DNA of 64,000 bases. Origin: Alphaproteobacteria bacterium (lineage in GTDB: Bacteria > Pseudomonadota > Alphaproteobacteria > GM7ARS4 > G965262615). How positions within the stretch are numbered: the stretch's first letter is position 1; the number at the start of each line of letters is the position of its first letter. Made by a program: the position numbers and the translations under genes. Below are positions 2,849 to 44,539 of this stretch, one piece after another. Below the pieces are notes generated by a model. That model ran no database searches. It had not been told where the DNA came from and was given only the letters and a program-made list of their open reading frames with translations. The DNA lies in assembly GCA_965262615.1 (NCBI GenBank), contig OZ253545.1, forward strand, positions 1,120,001 through 1,184,000. The letters are read 5' to 3'.

Positions 2849-2988
2849 ATTATCGCTCATTCGCCCCGCTCCCCTTCACCGGGGGGCGAGGCGCGCGGCT
2901 TGTTTTGATGATCGCTCACATGAATTGCCACACAGAGCGTGGCGCGCGAGGCATTGTTTTAATGATCACTTTTTGCTACAGTCCTTCT

Positions 2989-4134: not shown

Positions 4135-4152
4135 TCAGTCGGAGTATTCCAA

Positions 4153-6816: not shown

Positions 6817-6878
6817 TGCGTCTTTCCCCGCACCCCGTCCAATTGCAACAAAGCGATGGAATATGGTAGGATAAGGGT

Positions 6879-9677: not shown

Positions 9678-9694
9678 TTCGCGCGCCTCTCTCA

Positions 9695-10369: not shown

Positions 10370-10418
10370 GCCCGCAAATCAATTGCAACAAAATGATGAA
10401 ATGTGGTAGGGTGGAGGC

Positions 10419-11648: not shown

Positions 11649-11716
11649 CACAGCCCTTGTCTTTTCACGAACGCCGTTCAGTTGCAACGCCTCATGAGCT
11701 GTGGTAGGGTGGCAAT

Positions 11717-12460: not shown

Positions 12461-13044
12461 CACGATTCTTGTCTCTCTGGTTCATGACATCGGCTCACCA
12501 CGCCGAGAGTGACAGCGATGCCACAATTATAAGCCTTCTGCCAAGAGGACGCATCGCTTGTGTGGTGCGTTATTATGATGCCGCCGTTCCGCACCGCGCC
12601 GCCATCATCGCCCGCTTGCACACCATCGCGCGCGCCCGCCGAATTCAATTGTTCGTCTCTGTCATGAAGGGTCACCCTCTGCCGCACACCATCAAAACCA
12701 TTCACATCTCATCATGGTATTGTGCGCGCAATCTTGTCTCTTCATGGCGGCACAAACACTATACCGTCAGCACCTCTATTCATTCAGTGGCAGAATGGAC
12801 ACGCGCGCTACAATACAATCCCACCTATTGCCTGATTTCGCCGATTTATGCAACAGGCGACAAAAAGGCTTTGCCGCGTTCCATCCGTTCCGCCATTCTT
12901 GCATCATCACAACCCCACAACTTTCCTCGCCTGTTGGCATTGGGAGGCATCACGAATCGCACACCCATAGACAAGCGGTTCTATGGCAGAGCGATGCGGC
13001 GCGGTTTTACATCCGCCATCAATCCATCTACAATAAAAACATGA
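12457..13044 (+). CDS. Thiamine-phosphate-synthase-like (ThiE/TenI) protein, divergent
   Basis: STSIHS..E, ISPIYAT and LALGGI motifs; position between yggS and leuS. Confidence 0.65.
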   Translation: MTRFLSLWFMTSAHHAESDSDATIISLLPRGRIACVVRYYDAAVPHRAAIIARLHTIARARRIQLFVSVMKGHPLPHTIKTIHISSWYCARNLVSSWRHKHYTVSTSIHSVAEWTRALQYNPTYCLISPIYATGDKKALPRSIRSAILASSQPHNFPRLLALGGITNRTPIDKRFYGRAMRRGFTSAINPSTIKT

Positions 13045-15563: not shown

Positions 15564-15575
15564 GTGAGGGCTATG

Positions 15576-17132: not shown

Positions 17133-17166
17133 CTCCCCATCCTATCACATTCCATCATTTTTTGTG

Positions 17167-29486: not shown

Positions 29487-29823
29487 GAATTGACAATGAC
29501 CCATAACCACCATGATTGCAAGCTCAGCTATCCGATAAAATCAGCTGAATATCGCGCAATCTTTATTGACGAGGCGAGTCTTTTGCCAGTCATGTTTTGG
29601 GATGCCTCACCTTTTGGGATGCCTCATCGGCCTGCCGTCCCTTCGGATAAGGGACATACATGCTTTGCGGCATATTTTTGCGTCCTTCCTTCAGGGTCTT
29701 GGTGTTCATGAAGCGACAATGACCCATAACCGCCATGATTGCAAGCTCAGCTATCCGATAAAATCAGCTGAATATCGCGCAATCTTTGTTGATGGGGTGA
29801 GTCTTTTGCGAGCCATGTGTTGG
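29395..29823. repeat. Tandem duplication with 223-bp period across the M48 protease / FDH junction
   Basis: 29395-29600 matches 29618-29823 with scattered substitutions; TTTTGGGATGCCTCA is repeated at the joint. Confidence 0.95.
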
Positions 29824-31066
29824 CGCGCTGCGTGTGACGCTGTGCACTTTCGCCATCCCCCATGAGCAGGCTGCGTTCTGCCAGAGCCAGTTCGGCGAGT
29901 CCCATGTTGCCATTGCGTCCTGCCGCCGTGCTGTAAAAATGCCACGCCATGATGTTGTCGGATTCCTCCACCAGCACCAATTCCAATGCCTGCAACACCA
30001 GTGGCAGCAACGATTCATCATTCATCGCCAGTGCGGCTTGCGCCCATCCCATTAAAATGAGCGGATGATTATCGCTCAGCTCCACCGCGCGCGCATACGA
30101 TATGACGGCGGCATGAGGCTGACCGTGTTCAAACAAAATCTGCCCTCGCAGTTCGTGCAGGTATGGGTCGTTTTCTCGCCCTTGCAAAAGTCCATCAATG
30201 ATTGCCAGTGCAGTGTTCACATCCCCCGCTCGGTGGTGCACAATGGCTTTGGCGTAGTGACTGCCGAAGGAGTTGGGGTGAGTGGCGTAGAAATCAAGCA
30301 CTTCATTGGGGGGCAGTAAAAACCCTTTGAGTTTGGCAACCATGCGCTCATGACGCATCTCATCGTGGGGATGATGGCAGCAGTCGTGCGGTTCATGATG
30401 CAGATGCTCCGCCATGAGGCGAATGCGCTCACCACTGAGAGGGTGGGTGAGTTGATAGGGGTCTATGTCCAAGCCTTGTTCTTTTTCTGCCAGCATGGAG
30501 AGGAATGAGTATAGCCCTCCCACCGATTGTCCGCTGTTTTGCAGATAACTGACGGCGGCTTGGTCTGCCAGCGTCTCGTTGTGACGAAATTCCTCCAGCA
30601 ACAGGCGATTGCCCACATTGGGCATGGCGATGACCCCCGCCAGCCCCACATCAAACTGCCCGCCTGCCATGGCGGCGGCACTGAGCAGCATGGTCATGAG
30701 ATTGAAGATGCTGGTGTCAAAGGCGGCATCCTGCAGACGCAACAAATGCCCGCCGGTGATGTGTCCGATTTCGTGCGCCAGCACCCCCTTGACCTCATCG
30801 GCATTGCGGGTGTTCATCAAAAGCCCACTGTGCAAAAACATCCGTTGCCCCTCGGTGACAAAGGCATTGATGGATGAGTCGTTCAGCACCACCATCTGCA
30901 CGGTGCCGAAATCCAGCCCGCCCGCCGCAGCCAAAGGATACGCCCAAGAGTTAAGAGTGTCTTCAATTTCAGCGTCGCGAATGATGCTCGCAGCGGGGGT
31001 TGATGACGCAACCACGCTCACCCACGACATCAGCACAAGAAAAATAAAGCGTTTCATAAAGGTCAT
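29747..31066 (-). CDS. M48 metalloprotease with TPR repeats (BepA/YfgC-like)
   Basis: IIRDAEIE, INAFV, VLAHEIGH, ADQ, THP motifs. Confidence 0.92.
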   Translation of the reverse strand: MTFMKRFIFLVLMSWVSVVASSTPAASIIRDAEIEDTLNSWAYPLAAAGGLDFGTVQMVVLNDSSINAFVTEGQRMFLHSGLLMNTRNADEVKGVLAHEIGHITGGHLLRLQDAAFDTSIFNLMTMLLSAAAMAGGQFDVGLAGVIAMPNVGNRLLLEEFRHNETLADQAAVSYLQNSGQSVGGLYSFLSMLAEKEQGLDIDPYQLTHPLSGERIRLMAEHLHHEPHDCCHHPHDEMRHERMVAKLKGFLLPPNEVLDFYATHPNSFGSHYAKAIVHHRAGDVNTALAIIDGLLQGRENDPYLHELRGQILFEHGQPHAAVISYARAVELSDNHPLILMGWAQAALAMNDESLLPLVLQALELVLVEESDNIMAWHFYSTAAGRNGNMGLAELALAERSLLMGDGESAQRHTQRANTWLAKDSPHQQRLRDIQLILSDS

Positions 31067-31111
31067 AGTATGATATAATCATGACGGTTAGCAAGGCAAA
31101 GGGCAAGAATC

Positions 31112-32764
31112 ATGAACAACAAAAAACTCATCGCATGGATTGCCATCACCGTCATTGCCCACACGGGATGGACAATGGGCGTGGCTCATGCCGATGAAAC
31201 GGTAGATTTGCACCAATTGATGGAAGACGCTCAACAAGGCGATGCCGATGCCCAATTCTATCTTGGGTTGATGTATGGCAATGGCGCGGGTGTCACGCAG
31301 GATTATGAGGCAGGCATCTATTGGGTCACAAAAGCCGCGGAACAATGGCATGCCGATGCCCAATACGCTCTTGGGGTGTTTTATAAAAATGGCGATGGTG
31401 TGGCACAGAATTATGAGAAAGCCGTGTATTGGTATCAAAAAGCCGCGGCGCAAGGAAATGCCGATGCCCAATACGATCTTGGGTTGATGTATGGCAAGGG
31501 CGCAGGTGTCACGCAGGATTATGAGGCAGGCATCTATTGGTTCACAAAAGCCGCAGAGCAAAACCATGCTGATGCAATAGAAATACTCAAGGAATTAGGC
31601 ATGGCTCATGAAACGGACGAATTGCACCATTTGATGGAACGCGCCCAGCAAGGCGACTCCGTATCCCAATTCTATCTTGGGACGATGTATGAACAGGGCA
31701 GAGGTGTCTCTCGAGATGTTGGACAAGCGGTGCAATGGTATCAAAAAGCCGCCAAGCAAGGATTTGCCCAAGCCCAATACAACCTTGGGTGGATGTATGA
31801 AAATGGCACAGGTGTTCCGCAAGATGATGAACAGGCGGTAGAATGGTATCAAAAAGCCGCGGCACAAGGACTTGCCAATGCTCAAAACAATCTGGCGGAG
31901 ATGTATCGCGAGGGCAGAGGTGTTCCGCAGGATGATGAGCAAGCGTTGGAATTGTATCTAAAATCCGCCGAGCAAGGATATGATCGCGCTCAAACCACTA
32001 TGGGCTGGATGTATGACAATGGCATTGGTGTTGTGCAAGATTATGAGCAAGCCGCGCAATGGTTCACAAAAGCCGCGGTGCAAGGATTTGCCCGAGCTCA
32101 AAGTAATCTTGCTATGATGTATCTTCATGGCAGAGGTGTTCCGCAGGATTATGAGCAAGCCGCGCAATGGTGGAGAAAAGCCGCAAGGCAAGGCTATGCC
32201 AAGGCTCAATTCAATCTTGGGCTGATGTATCACAATGGAGATGGGGTTGCACAGGACGATGAGCAAGCTTTGTATTGGTGGGAGAAAGCCGCAAGACAAG
32301 GAAATAAAGATGCAATAGAAGCTCTCAAAATATTAGGCATGGCTGATGAAACGGACGAATTGCACCAATTGAGAGAACGCGCCGAGCAAGGCGATGCCGA
32401 TGCCCAAAACTATCTTGGTGTGATGTATAACACTGGCATGGGTGTGACGCAGGATAAAAAAGAAGCCGTGGAATGGTTCAAAAAATCCGCCGAACAAGGA
32501 AATGCCCTCGCCCAAGCCAATCTTGGAGTGATGTATAGGGATGGGATGGGTGTCACGCAGGATGATGAGGAAGCTGTGGAATGGTGGAAAAAAGCCGCAG
32601 AGCAAGAAAATGCCGTAGCCCAATACAATCTTGCTGTGATGTATGGCAAGGGAATCGGCGTGGCACAGAGTGATGAAAAAGCCGTCTATTGGTTCACAAA
32701 AGCCGCCAAACAAGGCGATGTTGATGCAATAGAAGTTCTCAAGAAATTAGGCATCACCGACTGA
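31112..32764 (+). CDS. Secreted Sel1-repeat protein built from three fused gene-sized modules
   Basis: Signal ...GVAHA; the C-cap DAIExLKxLG occurs three times and the N-cap ETxxLHxLxExAxQGD three times. Confidence 0.92.
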   Translation: MNNKKLIAWIAITVIAHTGWTMGVAHADETVDLHQLMEDAQQGDADAQFYLGLMYGNGAGVTQDYEAGIYWVTKAAEQWHADAQYALGVFYKNGDGVAQNYEKAVYWYQKAAAQGNADAQYDLGLMYGKGAGVTQDYEAGIYWFTKAAEQNHADAIEILKELGMAHETDELHHLMERAQQGDSVSQFYLGTMYEQGRGVSRDVGQAVQWYQKAAKQGFAQAQYNLGWMYENGTGVPQDDEQAVEWYQKAAAQGLANAQNNLAEMYREGRGVPQDDEQALELYLKSAEQGYDRAQTTMGWMYDNGIGVVQDYEQAAQWFTKAAVQGFARAQSNLAMMYLHGRGVPQDYEQAAQWWRKAARQGYAKAQFNLGLMYHNGDGVAQDDEQALYWWEKAARQGNKDAIEALKILGMADETDELHQLRERAEQGDADAQNYLGVMYNTGMGVTQDKKEAVEWFKKSAEQGNALAQANLGVMYRDGMGVTQDDEEAVEWWKKAAEQENAVAQYNLAVMYGKGIGVAQSDEKAVYWFTKAAKQGDVDAIEVLKKLGITD

Positions 32765-32794
32765 TTCCCCCTCGCCTTGAGGCAAGGACAGGCA

Positions 32795-33226
32795 TCAAAA
32801 AAGTGCCGTGGCAACCATTCCCAACAGAGCCACCATCACGCTCACAAGAACAACAATCACCCGCGTCGCAAAGAGATTGAAAGCCTGCAACAACACATTG
32901 ATATCTTCCTTAATTTCAGTTCGCGCCTGAGCGATTTGAGTTTCCAGTTTGGCGATTTGAGTTTCCAGTTTGGCGTTATTTTCATTATTTTCAGCTCGCG
33001 CCTGAGCGATTTGAGCTTCCAGTTTGGCGATTTGAGCTTCCAGTTTGGCGATTTTGGTCTCCAGTTTGGCGATATCTTCCTTCGTGGCAAAATTCTTGCC
33101 TTGCTCTTTGATGGTGGCAACATCCACCTTCAGAGCAACCACATCCGCTTTGAGGGCGACCACATCATCATACAAGCCATTCGCCTTGCGATGTTCGGTT
33201 GGTTTTTGTTCCGTCTGGATAGTCAT
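32795..33226 (-). CDS. C-terminally anchored coiled-coil protein A (DUF1640/CCDC90-like)
   Basis: FATKEDI neck motif, IAKLE(T/A)Q heptads encoded by 21-bp repeats, C-terminal TM helix. Confidence 0.8.
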   Translation of the reverse strand: MTIQTEQKPTEHRKANGLYDDVVALKADVVALKVDVATIKEQGKNFATKEDIAKLETKIAKLEAQIAKLEAQIAQARAENNENNAKLETQIAKLETQIAQARTEIKEDINVLLQAFNLFATRVIVVLVSVMVALLGMVATALF

Positions 33227-33300
33227 GGTGGTTAGAATATGTGCATTTGCAGGGTTTGTCAATGCCAAGATGCCTTACGGTCATTGCAGATGACCATGAG
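33227..33300 (-). promoter_or_regulatory. Portable upstream module, copy A
   Basis: GGTCAT-ctgca-ATGACC inverted repeat, then TTGACA-N17-TATTCT-7 nt-ATG. Confidence 0.8.
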
Positions 33301-33406
33301 CAAGAGAAAACATCACTCAAAACATTGGGCATACCCAACTAATTCGCCCTCGCTCTTGCTTTTTGCCATTGGTTTTTGTATGGGTGGCGTGCCCAATGGC
33401 AATCAA

Positions 33407-34588
33407 ATGAGGATAGCTCCATTGAATGATCGACATCTCCCGTCTCGCCGCAGTGCCATTCCCTCATTTATTGTGATGGACATGATGGCGAAGGCATCGG
33501 CACTGGAACGGCGCGGGGTGAAGGTCATGCGTTTGGAGGCGGGCGCGCCGGACACCGCTCCGCCGCCCGCCATCCTCAAACAACTGGCACACACCCTCAC
33601 CAAGCGCAATTTTGGCTACACCGATTCCACCGGAACGCCCCAGCTCAAAGAACGCATTGCATGGCTCTATGGGCATCGCTATGGGCTTGAGATTGACCCA
33701 TCCCGCATCGTCATCTCCAGTGGCTCATCGGCGTGTCTGACTCTGGCACTGCTGGCGGCGTTTGAGCATGGGGATGTGATTGCTCTGCCGCGTCCGTGTT
33801 ATCCCGCCTATCGCCCCATGGCGGAGGCGTTGGGTCTGCGGGTGGTGGATATGCCGCTCACGGATGAGGACGGCTGGTGTCTGACGGCGCGTCATATTGA
33901 GCAGTGTGAGACCAAACCGAGCGGCATCATTCTCACCAATCCCGCCAACCCCACCGGCGCACTGATGGACGAACACCAACTGGCAACCATTGCTGATTAT
34001 TGCCGACATAATGGTATCCGCATCATCAGCGATGAGATTTATCACGATGTCACCGATGATGACCACACAGCTCACAGCATCCTCTCGTTTGACCCCGATG
34101 CCATCGTGACCAGTGGCTTTTCCAAGTTTTTTGCGCTGCCGGGCTGGCGTGTGGGCTGGATGATCGCGCCTGTCGCTTTTGCCTCCTCCCTGCTGGCATT
34201 ACAGCAAAATCTCTATGTCGCGCCGCCCAGCGCAGGACAAGAACTCGCGATTTCCATGCTACAAGAAGAGGTTATGGACACCATGAAACACCATGTACGG
34301 CGATGGAATGACAACCGCAATGTTTTGTTGCGGTTTATTGAGCAAAGCCCACTCAGTCTGACGGCTCAGCCGCGCGGCGGATTTTACATTTATTGCGATG
34401 CCGCCGCCGTCACCCATGACAGCGTGGCGTGGTGTGATGAGATATTGCATCGTCATCATGTGGCACTGGCGGCGGGCGTGGATTTTGACCCCGTGGACGG
34501 TCATAAATTCGTGCGTTTTTCCTTCTGCCGACCAAACAATGAGATTACTACTGCCTGCAAGATTCTCGACAAAGTGTTTAATTCTTAA
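33407..34588 (+). CDS. Class I/II PLP-dependent aminotransferase
   Basis: GYT..G, TNPANPTG, ISDEIYH, SGFSKFFALPGWRVGW, GGFYIY. Confidence 0.93.
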   Translation: MRIAPLNDRHLPSRRSAIPSFIVMDMMAKASALERRGVKVMRLEAGAPDTAPPPAILKQLAHTLTKRNFGYTDSTGTPQLKERIAWLYGHRYGLEIDPSRIVISSGSSACLTLALLAAFEHGDVIALPRPCYPAYRPMAEALGLRVVDMPLTDEDGWCLTARHIEQCETKPSGIILTNPANPTGALMDEHQLATIADYCRHNGIRIISDEIYHDVTDDDHTAHSILSFDPDAIVTSGFSKFFALPGWRVGWMIAPVAFASSLLALQQNLYVAPPSAGQELAISMLQEEVMDTMKHHVRRWNDNRNVLLRFIEQSPLSLTAQPRGGFYIYCDAAAVTHDSVAWCDEILHRHHVALAAGVDFDPVDGHKFVRFSFCRPNNEITTACKILDKVFNS

Positions 34589-34665
34589 CCGTGAAAAAGC
34601 TGTTTTATCAGCCTCATCAGTGTGATACAATCGCGGCGGTCAATTGATGGCGCGAGGAGTTTGGT

Positions 34666-36189
34666 GTGGAAAAATTCTTTGAATACATTTTCCCAAAAAA
34701 AATCAGTACGAGGTCGCGAGTCTGTCTCTTATTCCTTGTACCCGCATTGTCCATTTTAATCCTTCTTCCATCAATTCTTGAAGCTTGGAATCAACCTCCA
34801 TTGCCAAGCCAATTTTTCTATTCTTTAATTACGGTAACAGGATTTCTGCTTTTTGCTTTGATTTTATCATTAATAAAAGATTTTGAAAAATCATCCGAGC
34901 CAACGCGTGACATAGCTAAAGACTTACATGATATGCTTCCTGAATTGGCGTTGTATATCACCGAACAATTGGTATCGGATAACATAAAAAATATGCAAAA
35001 GAAAGAAGCAACAAGACAATTTAATCTTGGTGTCAAACATTTATTTGGCAAGGGTGTTAAAAAAAATGCACAAAAAGCATTCCTCCACTTTGAAGCAGCC
35101 GCCCAACAAGGGGATGCCTACGCCCAATTCAATCTTGCTTTGATGTATAGGAATGGCAAAGGAGTGGCACAAAATGATAAGAAAGCCCTGTATTGGTATC
35201 AAAAAGCCGCCCAACAAGGGGATGCTAGAGCCCAATTCAATCTTGCTTGGATGTATCATGAGGGCAAAGGAGTGGCACAGAATGATGAGAAAGCCCTGTA
35301 TTGGTATCAAGAATCCGCCCAACAAGGGGATGCTAGAGCCCAATTCAATCTTGCTTTAATGTATCATGAGGGCAAAGGAGTGGCACAAAATGATGAGAAA
35401 GCCCTGTATTGGTATCAAAAAGCCGCCCAACAAGGGAATGCCAAAGCCCAATTCAATCTTGCTTGGATGTATGATGAGGGCAAAGGAGTGGCACAGAATG
35501 ATGAGAAAGCTGTGTATTGGTATCAAGAATCCGCCCAGCAAGGGGATGCCAAAGCCCAATTCAATCTTGCTTGGATGTATGATGAGGGCAAAGGAGTGGC
35601 ACAAAATGATAAGAAAGCACTATATTGGTATCAAGAATCCGCACAACAAGGAAGTGCCAGAGCCCAAATCAGTCTTGGGATGGCTTATGTTGGCGGAAAA
35701 GGTATTTCACAGGATTATCATGAGGCGATGCAATGGTTCAAAAAAGCCGCAGAACAAGGGAGTACCGATGCCCAAAACAATATTGGCTTTATGTATGCCA
35801 CTGGCATGGGTATTAAACCAAATGAGAAAAAAGCAGTGCATTGGCTCACAAAAGCTTCAGAGCAAGGATTTGCCATAGCCCAATTCAATCTCGCTGTGGT
35901 GTATGAAAGTGTGACACAGAATGATCAAAAAGCGAAGCACTGGTATCAAAAAGCCGTCCAGCAAGTTAGTGACGAAACCAAATTCACTCAGCAAGAAGAG
36001 CAGGAGAGGATCAAAGAAGCGGAACAAGAAGGGGATGCCAATTCCTTGTATCTTCTTGGCGTGAGATACGCCATTGGCGAAGAAGTCACGCGAGATTATG
36101 AAAAAGCGGCGCACTGGTTCACCCAAGCATCTCAGCTGAACTTTATTCAAGCCACGCGAGCTCTTGAATTGCTGAAAAAAGTCAAATAA
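34666..36189 (+). CDS. Membrane-anchored Sel1-repeat protein with near-identical 108-bp repeats
   Basis: Two TM segments; five almost identical AQFNLA(W/L)MYxxGKGVAQNDxKAxYWYQ units at about 35100-35650. Confidence 0.9.
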   Translation: MEKFFEYIFPKKISTRSRVCLLFLVPALSILILLPSILEAWNQPPLPSQFFYSLITVTGFLLFALILSLIKDFEKSSEPTRDIAKDLHDMLPELALYITEQLVSDNIKNMQKKEATRQFNLGVKHLFGKGVKKNAQKAFLHFEAAAQQGDAYAQFNLALMYRNGKGVAQNDKKALYWYQKAAQQGDARAQFNLAWMYHEGKGVAQNDEKALYWYQESAQQGDARAQFNLALMYHEGKGVAQNDEKALYWYQKAAQQGNAKAQFNLAWMYDEGKGVAQNDEKAVYWYQESAQQGDAKAQFNLAWMYDEGKGVAQNDKKALYWYQESAQQGSARAQISLGMAYVGGKGISQDYHEAMQWFKKAAEQGSTDAQNNIGFMYATGMGIKPNEKKAVHWLTKASEQGFAIAQFNLAVVYESVTQNDQKAKHWYQKAVQQVSDETKFTQQEEQERIKEAEQEGDANSLYLLGVRYAIGEEVTRDYEKAAHWFTQASQLNFIQATRALELLKKVK

Positions 36190-36198
36190 AGCTCAAAC

Positions 36199-36424
36199 TA
36201 CACGGGGTAAACAATGGACATGGCTCATACTGATTTGCAACAATTGATGGAGCGCGCTCAACAAGGCGATGCCCTCAGCCCAAAACAGTCTGGGGTGCAT
36301 GTATGAACAAGGCAGAGGTGTCACGCAGGATTATGAAGAAGCCGTGCGATGGTTCAAAAAAGCCGCGAGGCAAGGAAATAAAGCTGCCATAAAATCCCTC
36401 AAAATTTTAGGCATGACCGACTAA
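36199..36424 (+). pseudogene. Decayed short secreted Sel1 gene
   Basis: YTG*TMDMAH (compare HTGWTMGVAH), a frameshift near 36273, and the ending AIKSLKILGMTD*. Confidence 0.8.
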
Positions 36425-36438
36425 TTCAAGGGTTTTCG

Positions 36439-36768
36439 TCACTTCAAAATAAGTGTCACCAGAATGCCCACAAGGGACACAATCACTCCCGCCAGAGCCA
36501 CAATCACTCGCGCAGCGGCGCGATTGACGGCATCCAACAACTCATTTTTCGCCTTATCAATCTTGCCATCCACGACCGATATTTTGTCCAGCAGTTCAGC
36601 TCGCAAATCGGCAACATCTTCCTTCGTGGCAAAATGATTGCACTGCTCCTTGATGGTGGCAACATCCACTTTGAGAGTCACCACATCCGCTTTGAGAGCG
36701 ACCACATCATCATGCAAGCCATTCGCACCGCGATGCTTTGGTGGTTCTTGATTCGTTTCTATCGTCAT
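36439..36768 (-). CDS. C-terminally anchored coiled-coil protein B
   Basis: HFATKEDV, short stalk, TM helix ending VTLILK. Confidence 0.8.
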   Translation of the reverse strand: MTIETNQEPPKHRGANGLHDDVVALKADVVTLKVDVATIKEQCNHFATKEDVADLRAELLDKISVVDGKIDKAKNELLDAVNRAAARVIVALAGVIVSLVGILVTLILK

Positions 36769-36845
36769 GGTGATGAGAGTATGGGCATTTCAAGAATTTG
36801 TCAATGGCAAGACGCATTACGATCATTGCAGATGACCATGAGGCA
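36769..36845 (-). promoter_or_regulatory. Portable upstream module, copy B
   Basis: GGTCAT-ctgca-ATGATC, then TTGACA-N17-TACTCT-7 nt-ATG. Confidence 0.8.
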
Positions 36846-36921
36846 AGAGTCACCATCATTCAAAAAAGAGCAGTTGCAATTGCGTCTTAACTTTGCCATC
36901 CAAAAGCGGTATAAAAGCCCC

Positions 36922-37419
36922 ATGATGATTGCACGGTTGCTCGCCATCATAATGTTGCTCATGAGTGTCACCGCAACTTCCAGTCACGGCGAGATGATGC
37001 GCGTCAAAGGCATGGGGGGAATCTTCAATTTTGCCAAGGACAATAATTTTGCCTACGGCGCGGAGGTCACCCTGCCTTCACTCTTTTTGCCTTTGGGCTT
37101 GAATTTTGATGTGGGATTTCTCGCCACCGACCGCCGCGCCGTCTACGGCTACGCCGCCATTGAACGCGCTTTTTATGTTGATGACGACTGGCGCATCATC
37201 CCCTCATTGGCGATGGGATACTACGAACAAAAGGACGATAAAGATCTCGGATTTGAACTCAACTTCAAATCGGGCGGCGAGATTGCCTACCGCTTTGCTC
37301 ACAACGCATGGGCGGGAATTTCGGCTTTTCATATCTCCAACGCCTCGCTCAGCAGTCATAATCCGGGCACGGAGCTCTTTGTCTTCACCCTCACCTACGA
37401 TGTCAGTATAATTCCATGA
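36922..37419 (+). CDS. pagL: Lipid A 3-O-deacylase PagL-like outer membrane protein
   Basis: Signal peptide, KDLG..LNFKSG, HISNASL..NPG.E motifs. Confidence 0.8.
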   Translation: MMIARLLAIIMLLMSVTATSSHGEMMRVKGMGGIFNFAKDNNFAYGAEVTLPSLFLPLGLNFDVGFLATDRRAVYGYAAIERAFYVDDDWRIIPSLAMGYYEQKDDKDLGFELNFKSGGEIAYRFAHNAWAGISAFHISNASLSSHNPGTELFVFTLTYDVSIIP

Positions 37420-38366
37420 GCGAGCGCATTCACGACTCCATCACCGACCTCATTGGCAAAACGCCTCTGTTGCGCCTCAATCGCTTTGCGCGCTTTCACC
37501 AGTGCGAGGCGGAGCTCATCGCCAAACTGGAGCTTCTCAATCCTCTTTCATCGGTGAAGGATCGCATCGGGCTTGCCATGATTGATGATGCCGTGGCAGC
37601 GGGACGCATCACCGCAAACACCACCATCATAGAACCCACATCCGGCAACACGGGCATTGCTCTGGCATTCGTGGCAGCCGCCCGAGGGCTGAAACTCATT
37701 TTAACCATGCCCGCCAGCATGTCTGTGGAACGCCGCAAAATGCTCCAATTGCTGGGCGCACAAACCCATCTCACCGACCCCGCCCGAGGCATGAAGGGCG
37801 CGATTGAAAAAGCACACGAACTGCACAAAGAAATCAAGGATTCCATCATTTTGCAACAGTTTGAAAATCCCGCCAATCCAACCATTCATCGCCACACCAC
37901 GGCGCAAGAAATATGGCACGATGTGGGCAGGCGGCTGGATATTTTCGTCTCGGGCGTGGGAACGGGCGGCACGGTGACCGGCGTGAGTGAGGTCATCAAA
38001 GAGCAGCACCCCGCCCTTCATGTGGTGGCGGTAGAACCCGAAGACTCCCCCGTTCTGTCGGGAGGCACGGCGGGACCCCACAAAATTCAAGGCATTGGCG
38101 CAGGCATGATTCCCAAAAATCTCAACCAACAAATGATTGATGAGGTCATCACCATCAGCAACGAGACGGCGTTTGAGACGGCGCGCACGGTGGCGCGTCT
38201 TGAGGGCTTGGCGGTAGGCATTTCATCGGGGGCGGCTCTGGCGGCGGCTTTAGAGGTGGGACAGCGAGCCCAAAACAAAGGCAAACGAATCCTTGTCATT
38301 CTGCCGTCCGCCGCCGAACGCTACCTCTCCACCGAGCTTTTTTCCGATGGCATGGATACCAAATAA
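37416..38366 (+). CDS. cysK: Cysteine synthase A
   Basis: NPLSSVKDRIG, EPTSGNTG, GVGTGGT, HKIQGIGAG, ERYLST. Confidence 0.97.
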   Translation: MSERIHDSITDLIGKTPLLRLNRFARFHQCEAELIAKLELLNPLSSVKDRIGLAMIDDAVAAGRITANTTIIEPTSGNTGIALAFVAAARGLKLILTMPASMSVERRKMLQLLGAQTHLTDPARGMKGAIEKAHELHKEIKDSIILQQFENPANPTIHRHTTAQEIWHDVGRRLDIFVSGVGTGGTVTGVSEVIKEQHPALHVVAVEPEDSPVLSGGTAGPHKIQGIGAGMIPKNLNQQMIDEVITISNETAFETARTVARLEGLAVGISSGAALAAALEVGQRAQNKGKRILVILPSAAERYLSTELFSDGMDTK

Positions 38367-38420
38367 CCGTGAAGAATTTTGGTATTGACAAATTCTGCAA
38401 ATTCACATATTCTCACCATC
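38352..38420 (+). promoter_or_regulatory. Portable upstream module, copy E (overlaps the cysK stop)
   Basis: CCAAATAACCGTGAAGAATTTTGGTA-TTGACA-N17-TATTCT-7 nt-ATG 38421. Confidence 0.8.
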
Positions 38421-38702
38421 ATGACGACAGAGACGAAGCAAAAAAAAGAATATCTCACGGTGACGGCAAAAACCTATCGCTTGAAGAGCGGTCGCGCTCT
38501 TCTCATGGTGGATTTTACCACTCATGAAAGTGTCGCCGCCCTGCAAAGTGACGATGCTGTCAGTTTGTTGCGGGGAGATATCGCTCAACTGCGTGAAGAA
38601 ATTGAGAGGGCGAAAAATGAAGTGATCTATGCCATCAATCGCGCCGCTGTGGGAGTCATTGTTTCTTGTGTGATCGTTATGGTGGCAATCATTCTTAAGT
38701 GA
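38421..38702 (+). CDS. C-terminally anchored coiled-coil protein E with a divergent head
   Basis: IERAKNEVIYAINRAA..TM..ILK matches the paralogs; the N-terminal half differs. Confidence 0.7.
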   Translation: MTTETKQKKEYLTVTAKTYRLKSGRALLMVDFTTHESVAALQSDDAVSLLRGDIAQLREEIERAKNEVIYAINRAAVGVIVSCVIVMVAIILK

Positions 38703-39460
38703 CCCTCTCTCGCCATGAGATGGAATTCTATGCCAGCCACATCATGCTCCCGCAGATTGGCGGCAGGGGACAAGAAAAAATCGGGCGTGCCAAAGTGCTG
38801 GTGGTGGGTGCGGGAGGCATCGGCACACCCCTCATCATCTATCTGACTACTGCGGGCGTGGGAACAATCGGCATCGCCGATGATGACACCGTTGAAACCA
38901 GCAATTTGCAACGCCAAATTCTCTACCGCCAAAACCACATCGGCGCGCTCAAAACCACCACCGCCATTGATGAAGCACGCGCCATCAATTCCGCCGTCAC
39001 CCTCATTCCTCACCCCCAACGCATGGATGATGACACTCTTGCCCACATCCTGCCGAGCTATGACATCATTGCCGATGGCTCGGACAACATCACCACCGCT
39101 CACTGTCTCAATAAAGCGGCGGTCAAACAGGGCAAAATCCTCATCAAGGCATCGGTGAGCGGCTGGAGCGGACAAATCACCACCATCATGGGCGGCAATA
39201 CAAACGCTCCCTGCTACGCCTGCCTCTTTCCACCATCGGACACCGATGCCAACGCTCCTTCATGCGTTGAGCAAGGGGTTCTCAATATGGCGGTGTGTGT
39301 CATGGCGGGATGGCTCGGTGCGGAGGTCATCAAGTGCATTATCGGGACGGGACAATCCCTCAAAGGACGACTCCTCCTCTATGACGCGCTGCAAGCGTCC
39401 ATGCACACCATCCAATACGATAAAAATCCCAGCTGCCCCGTCTGTGCCGCTAGGGTTTGA
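38699..39460 (+). CDS. moeB: MoeB/ThiF family adenylyltransferase
   Basis: VGAGGIG, DDDTVETSNLQRQ, PCYACL, CPVC. Confidence 0.9.
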   Translation: MTLSRHEMEFYASHIMLPQIGGRGQEKIGRAKVLVVGAGGIGTPLIIYLTTAGVGTIGIADDDTVETSNLQRQILYRQNHIGALKTTTAIDEARAINSAVTLIPHPQRMDDDTLAHILPSYDIIADGSDNITTAHCLNKAAVKQGKILIKASVSGWSGQITTIMGGNTNAPCYACLFPPSDTDANAPSCVEQGVLNMAVCVMAGWLGAEVIKCIIGTGQSLKGRLLLYDALQASMHTIQYDKNPSCPVCAARV

Positions 39461-39983
39461 CCTGAATGCTACAGCCCCTCGTCATGTAATAGCGCGGGCT
39501 ATCATCATCGTCTCTTGCCAACAAGCCAAAGCGTTGCGGGTCATAGGCGTAGGAAATGGTCTGTTCGCGCGGGCGATAGCGATAGGGAAACTGACGAATA
39601 TACATTGATTGAATGTCATGAGCCTCTTGTTCTCGCATTGCATAGCGCACGCGCTCGCTGTAGTCACCAAAGCGTTCCTGATGCTTATTGCGGTGCTGCA
39701 TATGATGCACCAGTTCATGCACCAAAATAGAGACTGCGCACACATTCATCGCCCGTCCCATATCGTCACGCAAATAAACCGTCCGCTCCTCAATGTGATA
39801 AAATGCCACCACCGCACACCGTCGTCCCCCACACGCCATCTCTTGCAACGAATCCGATGACGCAAAAACCACCGAAGGGGTCTCCGAAGGCATGTCATAG
39901 CCAGAGACGCTCGCCACCCACAGCAATAACGAGGCAACCATATCTGTCAAAGAACTGACTCCAGAGTGAATCATGATACTCAC
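39450..39983 (-). CDS. Hypothetical protein with an HExxH motif
   Basis: SILVHELVHHMQ...REQEA; start uncertain. Confidence 0.6.
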   Translation of the reverse strand: MSIMIHSGVSSLTDMVASLLLWVASVSGYDMPSETPSVVFASSDSLQEMACGGRRCAVVAFYHIEERTVYLRDDMGRAMNVCAVSILVHELVHHMQHRNKHQERFGDYSERVRYAMREQEAHDIQSMYIRQFPYRYRPREQTISYAYDPQRFGLLARDDDDSPRYYMTRGCSIQVKP

Positions 39984-39991
39984 CTATAGTC

Positions 39992-40034
39992 TCAATGACA
40001 AGATGAATGAGGCATGAATTGGGAAAGAATTTCA
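39992..40034 (-). repeat. Diverged duplicate of the bioA 3' end
   Basis: GGCATGAATTGGG(A/C)AAGAATTTCA at 40011 and 41421; reads EILSQFMPHSSCH* against bioA EILAQFMPNDREASCD*. Confidence 0.85.
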
Positions 40035-40042
40035 AGCTGTGA

Positions 40043-40070
40043 GATTCTTGGCAAAGTGTTTAATTCTTAA
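40043..40070 (+). repeat. Duplicate of the aminotransferase 3' end (34561-34588)
   Basis: GATTCT(T/C)G(G/A)CAAAGTGTTTAATTCTTAA, 26/28 identical. Confidence 0.85.
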
Positions 40071-40093
40071 TGGGAATATGGTAAGCTGCCACC

Positions 40094-40432
40094 ATGAGAA
40101 CCACCCGCCTTATCACATGGATTGCCATTGTCGTCATTGCTCATACGGGCTGGATGCCGAGCGTGGCTCATGCCGAAGAAGATGCCATAGCCCAATACAA
40201 TCTTGGGGTGGATTATTACAACGACAAGGACTACCTACAAGCAGCGTATTGGTGGAAAAAAGCCGCCGAACAAGGGAATGCCAATGCTCAAACCACTCTG
40301 GCGTTGATGTATTACGATGGCACAGGTGTCACACAGGACGGTCTGCAGGCGGCGTATTGGTTCAAAAAAGCCGCAGAACAAGGACATAAAGGGGCGATAA
40401 AAGCCCTCAAGAAGGAAATAAAGATGCGATAA
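40094..40432 (+). CDS. Short secreted Sel1-repeat protein (2 repeats)
   Basis: Signal ...AHTGWMPSVAHA; a 32-bp duplication moves the usual LKTLGMTN* cap out of frame. Confidence 0.85.
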   Translation: MRTTRLITWIAIVVIAHTGWMPSVAHAEEDAIAQYNLGVDYYNDKDYLQAAYWWKKAAEQGNANAQTTLALMYYDGTGVTQDGLQAAYWFKKAAEQGHKGAIKALKKEIKMR

Positions 40433-40478
40433 AAGCCCTCAAAACATTAGGCATGACCAACTAATTCAAGGGGTTTTA

Positions 40479-40760
40479 TCATTTAAGAATTAGTGTTACC
40501 AGAATGCCGCCCAGAGCCACAATCACTCCCACGAGAGCCACAATCACCCGCACGGCAAAGCGATTGATGGCTTCCAACAACTCATTTTTCGCCTCAATGA
40601 CATCTTTTTTGGTGGCAAAATGATTGCACCGCTCCTTGATGGTGGCAACATCCACCTTGAGATCCACCATATCATCACGCGAGCCATTGGCACCGCGATG
40701 CTTGGGTGTTTTCTGCACCTCGCGATGCTTTGGTGGTTCTTGCTGCGTTTCCATTGTCAT
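40479..40760 (-). CDS. C-terminally anchored coiled-coil protein C (minimal stalk)
   Basis: HFATKKDV followed directly by IEAKNELL..TM. Confidence 0.8.
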   Translation of the reverse strand: MTMETQQEPPKHREVQKTPKHRGANGSRDDMVDLKVDVATIKERCNHFATKKDVIEAKNELLEAINRFAVRVIVALVGVIVALGGILVTLILK

Positions 40761-40838
40761 GGTGATGAGAATATGTGCGTTTGCAGGGTTTGTCAATAAC
40801 AAAATTCTTCACGGTCATTTGGCATGACCATGAGGCAA
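40761..40838 (-). promoter_or_regulatory. Portable upstream module, copy C
   Basis: GGTCAT-gccaa-ATGACC, then TTGACA-N17-TATTCT-7 nt-ATG. Confidence 0.8.
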
Positions 40839-40847
40839 GGGTTTTCG

Positions 40848-41360
40848 TCACTTCAAAATAAGTGTCACCAAGATGCCCACAAGAGACACAATCACTCCCA
40901 CAAGAGTCACAATCACCCGCGTAGCAACGCGATTGAAAGCTTCTAACACCTCATTTTTTGCCTTCTCAATCTTGTGATCCGTGGCTGACATTTTCTCCAG
41001 CAGTTCAGCTCGCAGTTCAGCCATGTCAGCTCGCAGTTCGGCGATGTTTTCCCTATTGTCAGCTCGCAGTTCGGCGATGTTTTCCCTATTGTCAGCTCGC
41101 AGTTCGGCGATGTTTTCCTTATTGTCAGCTCGCGCCTCAGCAATTTGAGTTTCCAGCTTGGCGATTTGAGCTTCCAGTTTGGCGATTTTGGTCTCCAACT
41201 TGGCGATATCTTCCTTCGTGGCAAAATTCTTGCCTTGCTCTTTGATGGTGGCAACATCCACCTTCAGAGCGACCACATCCGCTTTGAGGGCGACCACATC
41301 ATCATACAAGCCATTCGCCTTGCGATGTTCGGTTGGTTTTTGTTCCGTCTGGATAGCCAT
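40848..41360 (-). CDS. C-terminally anchored coiled-coil protein D (long stalk)
   Basis: FATKEDI, 21-bp heptad repeats plus 33-bp IAELRADNREN hendecad repeats (41024-41133), TM helix. Confidence 0.82.
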   Translation of the reverse strand: MAIQTEQKPTEHRKANGLYDDVVALKADVVALKVDVATIKEQGKNFATKEDIAKLETKIAKLEAQIAKLETQIAEARADNKENIAELRADNRENIAELRADNRENIAELRADMAELRAELLEKMSATDHKIEKAKNEVLEAFNRVATRVIVTLVGVIVSLVGILVTLILK

Positions 41361-41426
41361 AGTGGTTAGAATATGTGCATGTCAAGCGTTTGTCAATCAC
41401 AAGATGCCTCACGGTCATTTGGCATG
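41361..41426 (-). promoter_or_regulatory. Portable upstream module, copy D (forms the bioA 3' end)
   Basis: CATGCCAAATGACCGTGAGGCATCTTGTGA-TTGACA-N17-TATTCT-7 nt-ATG; the bioA stop TGA lies inside the -35 box. Confidence 0.8.
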
Positions 41427-42727
41427 AATTGGGCAAGAATTTCATGCAGCTGCTGCCACGCTTCACGCAGTGCCTGTGGTGCGATGCAATACGGTGGCAT
41501 CATATAGACCACATTACCCAACGGACGCAGCAACAGCCCGCGCCGCAACGCCTCTTCGCCAATGGCTGTGCCAATGGTGGCGTGATAGCCTTCATCCTTG
41601 CCATCAATGGTGAAGGCGGCAATCGTTCCCATGATGCGCGGCTTGGTGATGTGAGGCAGAGTCATGATGTCTTGCATGGCGGTGTGATGAATGTGTTCTA
41701 TGGCGCGAATGCGCGTCCATGTGTCGTCCGCATCAAACAGCTGCAATGATGCCAGTGCCGCGGCGCATGCCAATGGATTGGCGGTGTAGGAATGACCATG
41801 AGCAAAAAAGTGTCCCCCATCATGAGCAAAAGCCTCATAGATATGGTTCTGAATGATGGTCGCCGCAAGGGGAAGCGTGCCACCAGTCAATCCTTTGGCA
41901 CAACAGAGAATGTCCGGCTGGTGTGCCAATTGGTCGCTGGCGAACAATGAGCCCAAGCGTCCAAAGGCGGTCATGACTTCGTCAAAAATAATAAGCGCAT
42001 CGCTTTTGGTGCGAATCATGGCAACCGCCTCATTGAAAAAACGCCTTGAGCTCATCCGCATGCCACTCGCTCCCTGCACCAACGGCTCTAAAATGACCGC
42101 ATTGAGAGTGTGCCCGTTGGTGTGCAAGTGTTCAGATAGTGTCTCAAGGGCGCGCTCTTCGGTCACGCCCATTGCGTTGTCATGCAGCCATGTCTCGGGA
42201 TACGAGGTGAAATGAAACGGATAGAGCAAGGATTCAAACCCCTCATAGAGCTGGCATGAGACCCCCGCCGCCATCGCCCCCATGGTGTCACCGTGATAGC
42301 CTCCCTCCAATGCCAGAAAGTGCTTGGGTTCTTTGCCCTTTTTGCGCCAGTAGAGCCATGCCATTTTGAGAGCAATTTCAACGGCGCACGAGCCATTATC
42401 GGAGAAAAACACCCGCTGCAATGATGATGGTGTCACCCGCGCCAGATGCTCTGCCACCCGCACCGCGCCCTCATGAGTCACACCGGCAAACAACACATGA
42501 GACAATCGCTCACTTTGTTTGTGAATGGCTTTCATGATGGCAGGATGACGATGACCGTGGGTCACCACCCACCACGAAGAGATGAGATCCTGATAGCCGC
42601 GATCCGTTTCATCATAGAGAACACTGCCTTCAGCTCGCGTGATGACCAACGGCGCACCGCCCTTATCAAACGGATGCCACAAATGAGTCGCGTCTAAAGA
42701 CGAAAGATTATGTGGAAACGCCATCAA
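41393..42727 (-). CDS. bioA: Adenosylmethionine-8-amino-7-oxononanoate transaminase
   Basis: HLWHPF, SSWWV, DNGSCAVEIALK, YHGDT, FDEVMT, AKGLTGG, HGHSYTANP, LRPLGN. Confidence 0.95.
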   Translation of the reverse strand: MMAFPHNLSSLDATHLWHPFDKGGAPLVITRAEGSVLYDETDRGYQDLISSWWVVTHGHRHPAIMKAIHKQSERLSHVLFAGVTHEGAVRVAEHLARVTPSSLQRVFFSDNGSCAVEIALKMAWLYWRKKGKEPKHFLALEGGYHGDTMGAMAAGVSCQLYEGFESLLYPFHFTSYPETWLHDNAMGVTEERALETLSEHLHTNGHTLNAVILEPLVQGASGMRMSSRRFFNEAVAMIRTKSDALIIFDEVMTAFGRLGSLFASDQLAHQPDILCCAKGLTGGTLPLAATIIQNHIYEAFAHDGGHFFAHGHSYTANPLACAAALASLQLFDADDTWTRIRAIEHIHHTAMQDIMTLPHITKPRIMGTIAAFTIDGKDEGYHATIGTAIGEEALRRGLLLRPLGNVVYMMPPYCIAPQALREAWQQLHEILAQFMPNDREASCD

Positions 42728-43122
42728 ACAAGATGGTGAATTTTTTCATGATGCCCTTGAGGGGATTTTGAGTTTTTGCCATCACGACCATCCAAATAGG
42801 TCTTGTAGAAAAGATTGTGATAGTGAGCAATGAGCTGTGTGACATCATTGTCATCTTCCACTCTAAAAACACGCACATTTCTGACACACTGACCAAACCA
42901 CTCATGATGTGCCACCATCTCTTGCAAGGCACTGACGCACTCCAGCCAAGAAGATGCTCCCAAATAGACACTGCCCTGCACATTGACCAAAGCATACTTC
43001 TTGAAAACATCACCAATGGCTTTGTAGGCATTTTGATAGGAAGTGGGACATTCTCGCTCCAGACACTTTGTGTCCATATCAAACACCACGGCATAAGTTG
43101 AACTGCTGGTTTTCGGTGTCAT
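42724..43122 (-). CDS. vapD: VapD-like (Cas2-fold) endoribonuclease
   Basis: YAVVFDMDTKCL, YQNAY..I, QGSVY, WF..CVRNVRVFRVE; TTGCTA-N17-TAAATT-6 nt-ATG. Confidence 0.85.
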   Translation of the reverse strand: MTPKTSSSTYAVVFDMDTKCLERECPTSYQNAYKAIGDVFKKYALVNVQGSVYLGASSWLECVSALQEMVAHHEWFGQCVRNVRVFRVEDDNDVTQLIAHYHNLFYKTYLDGRDGKNSKSPQGHHEKIHHLV

Positions 43123-43139
43123 GGTTCTAATTTAATCAA

Positions 43140-43796
43140 TTACGATAACGATAGCAAGCTTGTGTCATAAGGCGGATGGCGGGCAAAAAATTCTTCTGAC
43201 AATGGCTGATGAAACGGCAGATGACCGACAATTGACACATCACCATAACGCTCAATTGCGGACGCGTTTTCATCATCGGCGTCTCCCACCAACACGACTC
43301 CCGCCACCTCAATGCCGTGCAGACGCAATGCCTGCAGTGTCAAACAGGTATGATTGATCGTTCCCAGAGCGGTGCGCGCCACCACAATCGCCGATGCTTG
43401 CCACAAGGCAAAGGCATCAATCATGAATTGGGAATCATTGAGAGGCACCATCACGCCGCCTGCGCCTTCAATGATGAGAGGGGCATCATCAGGAGTTGGC
43501 GGTGTCAATTGGTCAAGGGCAATGGTGACTCCTTCGGCGGCGGCGGCTTCATGAGGCGAGCGCGCCAGCTGAAAATCATAGGCGGGAGGTGCGGCAACCA
43601 CGCCGCCCAGTGATGCCACACGAGATGAATCATCCGTGCCGCTCTCGTCTCGTCCGCATTGAATCGCCTTCCAGTAAGCCCCGCCACCATGATGCAGCAA
43701 CCACGCCGCCACCACGGTTTTACCCACATTGGTATCGCTTCCTGTGACAATCATACGAGGTGTCATATTGTCTTTTTGGCTGTCTTTTTGGGTCAT
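43140..43796 (-). CDS. bioD: Dethiobiotin synthase
   Basis: TGSDTNVGKT, SPH.AA, IEGAGG, LGTINHT. Confidence 0.95.
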   Translation of the reverse strand: MTQKDSQKDNMTPRMIVTGSDTNVGKTVVAAWLLHHGGGAYWKAIQCGRDESGTDDSSRVASLGGVVAAPPAYDFQLARSPHEAAAAEGVTIALDQLTPPTPDDAPLIIEGAGGVMVPLNDSQFMIDAFALWQASAIVVARTALGTINHTCLTLQALRLHGIEVAGVVLVGDADDENASAIERYGDVSIVGHLPFHQPLSEEFFARHPPYDTSLLSLS

Positions 43797-44539
43797 GATA
43801 GCCGCCGCGCCACACGATAGGCAATTTTCCAATCCACAATCAAGGGTGTCTGTTGACGCACCACCCACGCTCGCTCGCCGAAGGGCGCGCCTTTGTATGA
43901 GGCGGCGGCGGTGTGACATCCTGTCATTTTCAATTGACGCACAAAGGCGCGCGGGGAGGCGGCAAACTGCTCATGAACAATGGTCTCAGATGCGAGTGTA
44001 TCGCAATGAGCGAGACGCAGCCATTCATCCAGTTCAGACGCGCACGGCAGAGGCAGCAATCCATGACGCAACGCCCGCGAGCCAATCAATCGCCGCCATG
44101 ACGACCAGCTCTGTGCCAACGGCACAGAAAACGCCAGCAAGCCTCCATCCGCCACCAACGATGCCAGTTTTTCCAGTGCTCGCGCGCCATCATTCATCCA
44201 GTGAAGCCCCATGTTGATGGTGACAAGATCAAAGATGCCCGCCCGCACCGCCAGCCGATTCACATCCCCCACCACACGCCCCACAGATGATGACACTTCC
44301 CGCATCATGGCATGACTGCAATCCATCATCACGACACGACCCGTCGCCACCGTTCCATAACGACAACGCGCCTCATACAATGCACCCGTGCCACACGCCA
44401 CATCCAACCAGTGGCGCGGCGCATCATGAACCGACAGCATCCGCGCCAAATGGGCGGCAATGGTCTTTTGCACCGTTGCCCATTCATCATAGTGAGGCGC
44501 GGCGCGTGAGAAATTAGCATGACACTCACGAACCGACAT
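43793..44539 (-). CDS. bioC: Malonyl-ACP O-methyltransferase BioC-like
   Basis: FSRAA..YD..A.VQ, LDVACGTG, LHW; operon context. Confidence 0.8.
   Translation of the reverse strand: MSVRECHANFSRAAPHYDEWATVQKTIAAHLARMLSVHDAPRHWLDVACGTGALYEARCRYGTVATGRVVMMDCSHAMMREVSSSVGRVVGDVNRLAVRAGIFDLVTINMGLHWMNDGARALEKLASLVADGGLLAFSVPLAQSWSSWRRLIGSRALRHGLLPLPCASELDEWLRLAHCDTLASETIVHEQFAASPRAFVRQLKMTGCHTAAASYKGAPFGERAWVVRQQTPLIVDWKIAYRVARRLS

Follow-up and report, generated by a model that had tools for sequence, protein, structure and literature searches.

Eleven copies of a small gene encoding a membrane-anchored coiled-coil protein lie at nine sites in the chromosome of an alphaproteobacterium of the GM7ARS4 lineage, and five of them fall within the stretch of DNA described here. 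The reading that we favor, with somewhat better than even confidence, is that host recombination inserted this DUF1640/CCDC90-like gene with duplication of the target sequence, and that the paralogs exchanged sequence with one another. The window, i.e. the whole stretch that was analyzed, comprises 64,000 nucleotides (nt), positions 1120001-1184000 of the single contig (C1) of a 1,542,258-nt genome that is 98% complete and alone represents its family among the genomes compared. The metagenome runs containing this genome include one marine and one sponge run. Genes are named by their start coordinate, and positions are those of the window unless the genome is stated.

Searches with blastn, tblastn, and nhmmer agree on the 11 copies, and three distant paralogs bring the family to 14 genes. 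In the window, 33226 (32795-33226, minus strand) encodes 143 amino acids (aa) with a FATKED neck and a C-terminal transmembrane segment, and stands tail-to-tail with a Sel1 gene at 31112-32764. 36768 (36439-36768, minus) encodes 109 aa. 38421 (38421-38702, plus) encodes 93 aa, is the most divergent with the neck FTTHES, and lies between cysK and moeB, its stop codon overlapping the start of the moeB-type open reading frame (ORF). 41360 (40848-41360, minus) encodes 170 aa with in-frame 7- and 11-residue repeats, and 40760 (40479-40760, minus; 93 aa) is the second member of the tandem pair that the two form. The ORFs upstream of 33226 and 36768 are divergent neighbors. All five genes are present and intact at the starts given in a preliminary description of this DNA. 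The other copies start at genome positions 65238, 833867, 930041, and 1498572 and, as a tandem, at 1008567 and 1007869. The preliminary description had held that confinement to five neighboring paralogs would mean ordinary local duplication; the five are a real copy family but the family is not confined to them, and plain local duplication is excluded because copies lie 145-1,090 kb away. The three distant paralogs flank rRNA genes (genome 682800-690840), each with its own TTGACA-17-TAnnnT promoter. The rRNA region is split there, with the 23S gene on the strand opposite the 16S gene; one paralog is convergent just past the 16S end and the other two form a 654-nt tandem next to the 23S gene.

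Gene order in three order-level relatives, all of which lack the cassette, bears directly on how the copies came to their sites. The genes cysK and moeB are adjacent in two of the three, bioA and a DUF6647-like gene in two, purD and xseA in all three, and smc and atpB in two. Four sites therefore appear to lie between ancestrally adjacent genes, which supports insertion. The -35 box of the promoter is at most 40 nt from a same-strand stop codon at five of the nine sites, and at four (bioA, cysK, hemD, and an ankyrin gene) the stop codon of the target gene stands in sequence derived from the block that precedes the copy. The names bioA and cysK were assigned by NCBIfam above cut-off. The block before 41360 (41361-41444, minus) is fused to the end of bioA, whose stop codon falls inside the -35 hexamer (41391-41396), and the block before 38421 (38351-38420, plus; -35 at 38385-38390) lies over the last cysK codons and stop (38366). 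The earlier statement that the block provides the last codons and stop of both genes is thereby borne out.

Tail duplications are found at three of the nine sites: 24 nt at bioA (40011-41444), an exact 28 nt at the ankyrin gene (1008567 tandem), and, flanking 33226, 43 nt from a Sel1 gene end. The flanking repeats score 44, 54, and 39, respectively, against 31, 30, and 29 for the best of 200 shuffles, which served as the null. At bioA the stranded 3' end occupies 39990-40040 (minus); its core (40011-40034) is identical at 23 of 24 nt to 41421-41444, the working copy of the repeat, and it reaches a stop codon in block-like sequence. This repeat extends to about 50 nt if its decayed end is included. 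Around the 33226 unit, the left copy at 32738-32782 (plus) holds the 3' end of the 31112-32764 Sel1 gene with a hairpin, and pairs with a stranded, decayed copy at 33314-33358 (plus) as an imperfect direct repeat. The inserts measure 1,410 nt at bioA and about 1.2 kb at the ankyrin site.

Four metagenome runs were compared with the window over 29000-44500. A contig of run X5 (5,164 nt, depth 94.9, ~97% identical) joins 40010 to 41421, so that in this one contig the 1,410 nt at 40011-41420, comprising a Sel1 gene and two coiled-coil genes, are absent. The joint lies inside the direct repeat, among the first 13 letters of its 24 nt, and the X5 bioA product would end in MPHSSCH, not MPNDREASCD. 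The Sel1 gene that is a passenger in this indel is of secreted type (40094-40463, plus); its ORF stops at 40432, and the usual tail carries on in a different frame as far as 40463. The preliminary description had proposed a search for empty sites next to bioA and between cysK and moeB; the first is seen in X5 and the second in the two order-level relatives where those genes are adjacent without the unit. Contigs of X5 and X6 run across the 36768 and 38421 units; X4 likewise covers 38421, and X5 covers the promoter side of 33226. Of five loose-end flanks of family or Sel1 sequence tested from other runs, one maps to the hemD site and four have no full-length match in this genome. The four hint at other sites or at diverged flanks in those strains.

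Exchange between copies is shown by pairwise identities, on which mosaicism rests because trees of the 5' and 3' halves are mostly unresolved (one and zero starred branches, respectively, with 38421 left out). The copies 33226, 41360, and 1498572 are 96-97% alike from promoter to neck and 70-82% alike in their 3' ends. 33226 and 1498572 share 97% in the 5' half and 70% in the 3' half, while 36768 and 1498572 share 81% and 92%. The pairs 36768/1498572 and 833867/930041 have 79-81% identity in the 5' half and 92-94% in the 3' half. Differences in the stalk consist of in-frame 7- and 11-residue repeats.

Each of the five window genes is preceded by TTGACA, a 17-nt spacer, TA(T/C)TCT, and an ATG 7 nt further on, just as first described, and all 14 family genes have TTGACA-17-TAnnnT with a start codon 7-8 nt downstream. 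The genome has 16 sites of the form TTGACA-17-TAnnnT-(6-8)-RTG, and 14 of them are family genes. A Shine-Dalgarno-like word occurs in the 20 nt before the start in none of the 14. Genome-wide, the -10 profile has its maximum 6 nt ahead of start-like ATGs, which places the 7-8 nt spacing of the family 1-2 bases above the mode. In the portions of PMC7566282 that bear on this point, a leaderless gene is one whose start codon lies at or within 5 nt of the transcription start and that has no Shine-Dalgarno sequence, and leaderless transcripts are described as not uncommon in alphaproteobacteria. Because of the promoter-to-start geometry and the lack of a Shine-Dalgarno word, we read the block as a leaderless promoter, the transcription start being predicted from that geometry. 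The conserved core is a requirement of a leaderless sigma-70 promoter; its 36 nt are probably kept because promoter and start codon form one functional piece.

The block had been proposed to be a portable module bounded by defined edges and carrying an inverted repeat that might serve as a recombination or regulator site. A profile of the 5' region matches the 11 family genes and nothing else, so the block never precedes an unrelated gene and is not portable to other genes. What stands of the proposal is the dispersal of promoter-gene units, often to the 3' ends of core genes, as judged by the five sites near same-strand stops, the four ancestrally adjacent gene pairs, and the one empty site. 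Conservation upstream of the -35 box ends at a different point in each copy, giving ragged 5' edges. The inverted repeat GGTCAT-N5-ATGACC, described as whole before three window genes and half before two, has no mismatch at 33226 and 40760 and a single one at 36768; at 41360 and 38421 it is incomplete. Genome-wide it is whole or nearly whole in four of 11 copies and lacking in the four with the shortest blocks. The two perfect repeats are homologous and count as one origin, with 0.47 expected by chance. Because the repeat is whole in so few copies and the 5' edges are ragged, the block is not a cassette bounded by attachment (att) sites; we read the repeat as an optional upstream remnant and possibly a regulator site in some copies.

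The supposed cassette edges do stand at the places listed, but they are not cassette ends. The (T)GAGGCAAG word is the gene's own 3' tail, found upstream only in the second genes of tandems and in two solo copies that look tandem-derived, and the TTCAAGG edges mark the junction with the end of a convergent Sel1 gene. The block before 33226 (33227-33300, minus) has its -10 at 33234-33239, its -35 at 33257-33262, and the inverted repeat at 33279-33295, followed by the relic tail of a former upstream tandem copy. The block before 36768 (36769-36856, minus; -35 at 36799-36804, inverted repeat at 36821-36837) also ends in a relic tandem tail. Between the tandem genes, the block at 40761-40847 (minus) consists of the tail of the 41360 gene, the perfect inverted repeat (40813-40829), and the -35 (40791-40796). 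The tail word was considered as an element resembling repetitive extragenic palindromes and rejected: it has five exact copies, four in the family and one inside an unrelated ORF, and no orphan relics. Hairpins at the 3' ends were rejected as a shared element, being inconsistent among copies. An Rfam scan of the window gave nothing at gathering score. At 33299 the contigs of all four runs have an extra G that restores the family tail word, and this genome has there either a 1-nt deletion or an assembly error.

Families of mobility enzymes were searched genome-wide. RVT_1, Cas1, resolvase, IS110, rve, and DDE_Tnp_1 gave no match, and their controls matched. The only tyrosine recombinases are two, with best scores to XerD and XerC, and the search of these families turned up no orphan recombinase. 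For the families searched, the absence of integrases and transposases noted earlier for the window also holds genome-wide, apart from the XerC- and XerD-like recombinases. Repeats of at least 400 nt at 95% identity or more number 12, of which 11 are tandem and one is a pair 17.6 kb apart; none occurs in three or more places, so no dispersal like that of insertion sequences (IS) is seen. RecA, ComEC (a 718-aa frame), and DprA are present. A VapD/Cas2-like gene at 42724-43122 (minus), within the biotin operon between a bioD-like gene and bioA (NCBIfam VapD, E 1.2e-8, below cut-off), was considered as an integrase partner and rejected, as the genome has no Cas1. X5 differs at this gene by a 64-nt skip and small indels.

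The tail-duplication footprint is a property of the host and not of the cassette, because dozens of unrelated genes in the genome show it. The last 70 nt of each gene were sought within 5 kb downstream, with 108 of 1,316 genes dropped for having a paralog within 12 kb. Stranded 3'-end copies lie behind 52 of the 1,208 remaining genes, against four, four, and one in the upstream, mid-gene, and reverse-complement controls. In 37 of the 52 cases the copy is at most 320 nt from the stop; rho-like, guaA-like, and dapD-like genes, named by eye, are included.

In the mechanism that we propose, the unit would be a minimal self-expressing gene of ~350-700 nt, whose sigma-70 promoter is close to consensus, whose start is leaderless, and whose coiled-coil product is tail-anchored. 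It would have no mobility machinery of its own and would have been spread in the lineage by host recombination. Tandem pairs or direct repeats would loop out, or DNA of a sister strain would be taken up (ComEC, DprA, RecA), and a crossover within a short stretch of homology, often among the final codons of a gene, would integrate the piece and duplicate the tail of that gene. Insertions would survive only where the core gene loses no more than a few codons, with the 5' flank of the unit giving the new stop at four sites. The same repeats could later allow precise loss or amplification, and paralogs could exchange halves.

Several points weigh against this mechanism. No flanking repeat was found within 8 kb at six of the nine sites, and the 24- and 28-nt repeats are short for RecA and under the 30-bp threshold of Furuta et al. 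(2010, PMC2853133). The empty-site joint was seen in one of the four runs and not in the other three. X5 may have lost the insert precisely and secondarily instead of retaining a pre-insertion allele, because run X6, which is more distant (~5-9% differences, against ~3% for X5), has a contig over 39694-40180 that carries the Sel1 side of the insert. The bioA site may have been visited more than once, because the stranded bioA tail ends in block-like sequence. MutS is present and should restrain recombination between diverged copies. The mobile-element search covered the six families named above and the tyrosine recombinases only, and neither circles nor transcript starts, RNA runs, or competence were observed.

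The main rival to insertion by host recombination is a templated insertion independent of RecA, in which a stalled fork moves to a paralog through a few matching bases, copies promoter plus gene, and comes back slightly behind the point where it left, so that the target tail is duplicated. This would leave the same footprint without a circle or DNA uptake. It is in keeping with the short duplications (24 and 28 nt), with junction microhomologies of 6-9 nt between gene tail and block at bioA, cysK, and the ankyrin gene, with the closeness of 37 of the 52 stranded tails to their stop codons, and with a -35 segment present three times at genome 1498536, together with short tandem repeats next to other copies. 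We consider it unlikely all the same, as the diverged pair around 33226 behaves like two alleles, the relic matching the Sel1 end at 40440-40467 more closely than the one next to it, and exchange of half genes across 340 kb suits homologous recombination. It is also conceivable, with a distinctly small probability, that the family arrived with a phage or transposon whose enzymes were lost, and that the copies are now fixed residents undergoing gene conversion and occasional deletion. The prophage DUF1640 genes of Liberibacter (in the relevant excerpts of PMC5291501) and a near full-length match to the phage family phrog_9415 fit such an origin, as does the apparent occupancy of 33226, 36768, and 38421 in the strains with spanning contigs, and the X5 empty site may be a deletion. 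However, no relative was found in viral contigs, the near-identical 5' halves at distant sites and the exact 28-nt duplication suggest recent events, and the four flanks of five without full-length match hint at strain-specific sites.

Two further explanations invoke dedicated enzymes. A non-autonomous site-specific cassette, with GGTCAT-N5-ATGACC recombined in trans by XerCD or an unseen recombinase, could draw on the repeat near the left edge in four copies, the conserved tail word after the stop in most, and the presence of XerC and XerD. It is largely refuted and very improbable: the repeat is absent or partial in seven of 11 copies, the edges are ragged, its single origin compares with the 0.47 expected by chance, the indel breaks in the bioA tail repeat and not in the inverted repeat, and the duplicated sequences vary by site. 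A recombination-site role of the inverted repeat, as raised in the preliminary description, is not supported, the repeat being absent from most copies and the 5' edges ragged. Retroposition from read-through transcripts of tandem pairs would give fixed 3' ends, truncated 5' ends, and target duplications; the 3' ends are indeed more uniform than the 5' ends, and a tandem pair would place a promoter inside the RNA. We give this hardly any credence, given that no reverse transcriptase was found, every copy keeps a full -35 box, and the 1,410-nt indel includes the opposite-strand Sel1 gene with its upstream DNA.

From the N-terminus, the proteins have a short tail and a helix, then the neck, then a stalk, and last a hydrophobic helix; no signal peptide is evident. 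In 13 of the 14 the neck reads FATKxD, whose first residue is aromatic, and in 38421 it reads FTTHES, and in all 14 the best 19-mer (hydropathy 2.1-2.9) lies 0-6 residues from the C-terminus. Reading frames are open in all 14 genes, and dN/dS is 0.29 over 34 alignable codons, a value biased downward because the region was picked for its alignability. A monomer model of the 170-aa protein (pLDDT 86; residues 1-9 of low confidence) shows two helices, 11-42 and 49-169, interrupted at the neck, and Foldseek gave no match to this model at E <= 0.001. In the ESM Atlas, recognition was below threshold, and one cluster labeled "putative DUF1640" at 0.90 is a lead only. PF07798 scores 17-21 bits (best E 3e-4) and does not reach the gathering cut-off of 33.5. 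The best sequence match to a solved structure is 5APZ, a MATKDD beta-layer construct (E 8e-4). As given in the available text of Hartmann et al. (2016, PMC4786415), the beta-layer consensus at the start of the DUF1640 stalk is [aliphatic]-A-T-K-[polar]-[DE], and the family neck agrees with it in 13 of 14. The earlier assignment to a DUF1640/CCDC90-like architecture thus holds for the layout and for the FATKxD neck in four of five window genes, but not for the neck of 38421, and the PF07798 scores are low. Judged from sequence, the proteins are built like DUF1640/CCDC90, with strict membership below the Pfam cut-off.

Adlakha et al. are said to have described, in 2019, a folded N-terminal head domain in CCDC90-type proteins. 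The canonical helical head seen in the distant relatives L026, L029, L030, L042, and L043 appears by eye to be absent in this family, which shares with DUF1640/CCDC90 the xATKxD motif at the start of a coiled-coil stalk and the C-terminal membrane anchor, but has in place of the head a short tail and 2-4 heptads, and comprises 14 paralogs of very different stalk lengths in 1.5 Mb. Probably the products are inner-membrane coiled-coil stalks that differ in length, are expressed at a high level, and evolve under purifying selection; a role as a membrane scaffold or spacer is the leading guess, held with a little less than even confidence.

The family was found in none of 40 relatives. A profile search of 300 class-level genomes gave only weak matches, in four genomes (E 2e-5 or worse), and a search of viral contigs with the family alignment found no relative. 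The related loci, 11 from metagenomes and 10 from genomes, are all distant relatives, and perfect promoter geometry on the strand of the gene occurs in none of the 12 such loci examined. A search of representatives gave seven proteins at E <= 1e-10, followed by a gap. A phage origin of the coiled-coil genes is plausible because of the phrog_9415 match (E 4.5e-12) and the DUF1640 genes located in Liberibacter prophage regions according to the excerpts of PMC5291501. No description of dispersed DUF1640 promoter-gene units was found in the literature searched, subscription journals not being covered.

The surroundings of the copies show further features. Genes with Sel1 repeats are densely clustered at 1-17200 and 31112-40463, many with signal-like N-termini and common tails, and four of the 11 coiled-coil genes converge tail-to-tail on a Sel1 gene or on a remnant of one. 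A frameshifted one-repeat Sel1 remnant at 36215-36424 (plus) is convergent with 36768, and X5 appears to have a longer Sel1 gene from 36215. An array of ankyrin-repeat genes (genome 1002800-1009320) is broken by the coiled-coil tandem pair. At 29409-29633 there is a local duplication of a gene start, of which a 223-nt segment is absent in X5. At 30900-31066 the 3' end of an M48 peptidase gene is duplicated, with the copy 164 nt past the stop inside the neighboring Sel1 gene region. Elsewhere, ORFs judged by eye to be of Mu-like Mor, terminase, and portal type form a remnant behind a duplicated gene tail at genome 1514270-1518080. Three tRNA-Ser(cga) copies ~6-7 kb apart at genome 1426947-1440388 suggest tandem islands, and a 268-nt segment that spans one gene's end and the following gene's start is present four times in tandem at genome 1509118-1510577.

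A bolder reading, which we think is unlikely, is that of a self-spreading minimal gene without an enzyme of its own, with a maximal-strength leaderless promoter that lets it function at any landing place and a stop-supplying flank, whose circles, looped out of tandem pairs, re-enter gene tails and which is still moving in wild populations. If this were true, the last codons of essential genes (bioA, cysK, hemD, and the ankyrin gene) would be overwritten harmlessly, the promoter would rewire downstream core genes (moeB and xseA), circles would sometimes carry Sel1 genes, and the process would be tied to a membrane stalk of variable length under selection for dosage or diversity. The nine sites marked by one cargo family in a complete, apparently IS-free chromosome, with wild strains differing at one of them, form a natural series for asking whether single-crossover integration or template switching is the source of the duplications, and they indicate that a reduced genome can expand a gene family chromosome-wide without mobile elements. 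The literature searched assigns no established function to the bacterial relatives of MCUR1/CCDC90, and the 14 paralogs with consensus promoters and varied stalk lengths are a candidate set for testing one.

Integron gene cassettes and miniature inverted-repeat transposable elements (MITEs) are small single-gene units without an enzyme of their own, and the unit described here resembles them in these respects. It differs in having neither attC-like ends nor terminal inverted repeats and in that each unit has its own promoter; its 5' ends are ragged, its inverted repeat is at one end only, and no integron integrase or transposase of the tested families is present. By description only, the family also resembles the Bdr proteins of Borrelia, small products of many gene copies whose coiled-coil repeats vary and which are anchored in the membrane by the C-terminus. 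It differs from Bdr in that the Bdr genes are on plasmids and prophages. The closest parallel is insertion with long target duplication. In the passages of Furuta et al. (2010, PMC2853133) that set out their screening, the insert is under 20 kb and the duplication over 30 bp, the strain without the insert has a single copy of the target, there are no linked mobility genes, and the cargo includes restriction and modification genes. The inserts at bioA and the ankyrin site are within this size, the target is single in X5 (where the single copy may be a later loss), and no linked mobility genes were found among the families searched; the cargo consists of coiled-coil and Sel1 genes in place of restriction-modification genes. 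Shared with that system, as far as those passages describe it, are the small insert lacking mobility genes, a direct repeat often over a gene 3' end, the empty site in a related strain, competence genes, and amplification or loss via the repeats. The present case differs in that two of the three repeats are under 30 bp, the cargo is a membrane coiled-coil, one cargo family occupies nine sites, and the flank supplies the target stop at four of them. What is new here is the reuse of one cargo at many sites.

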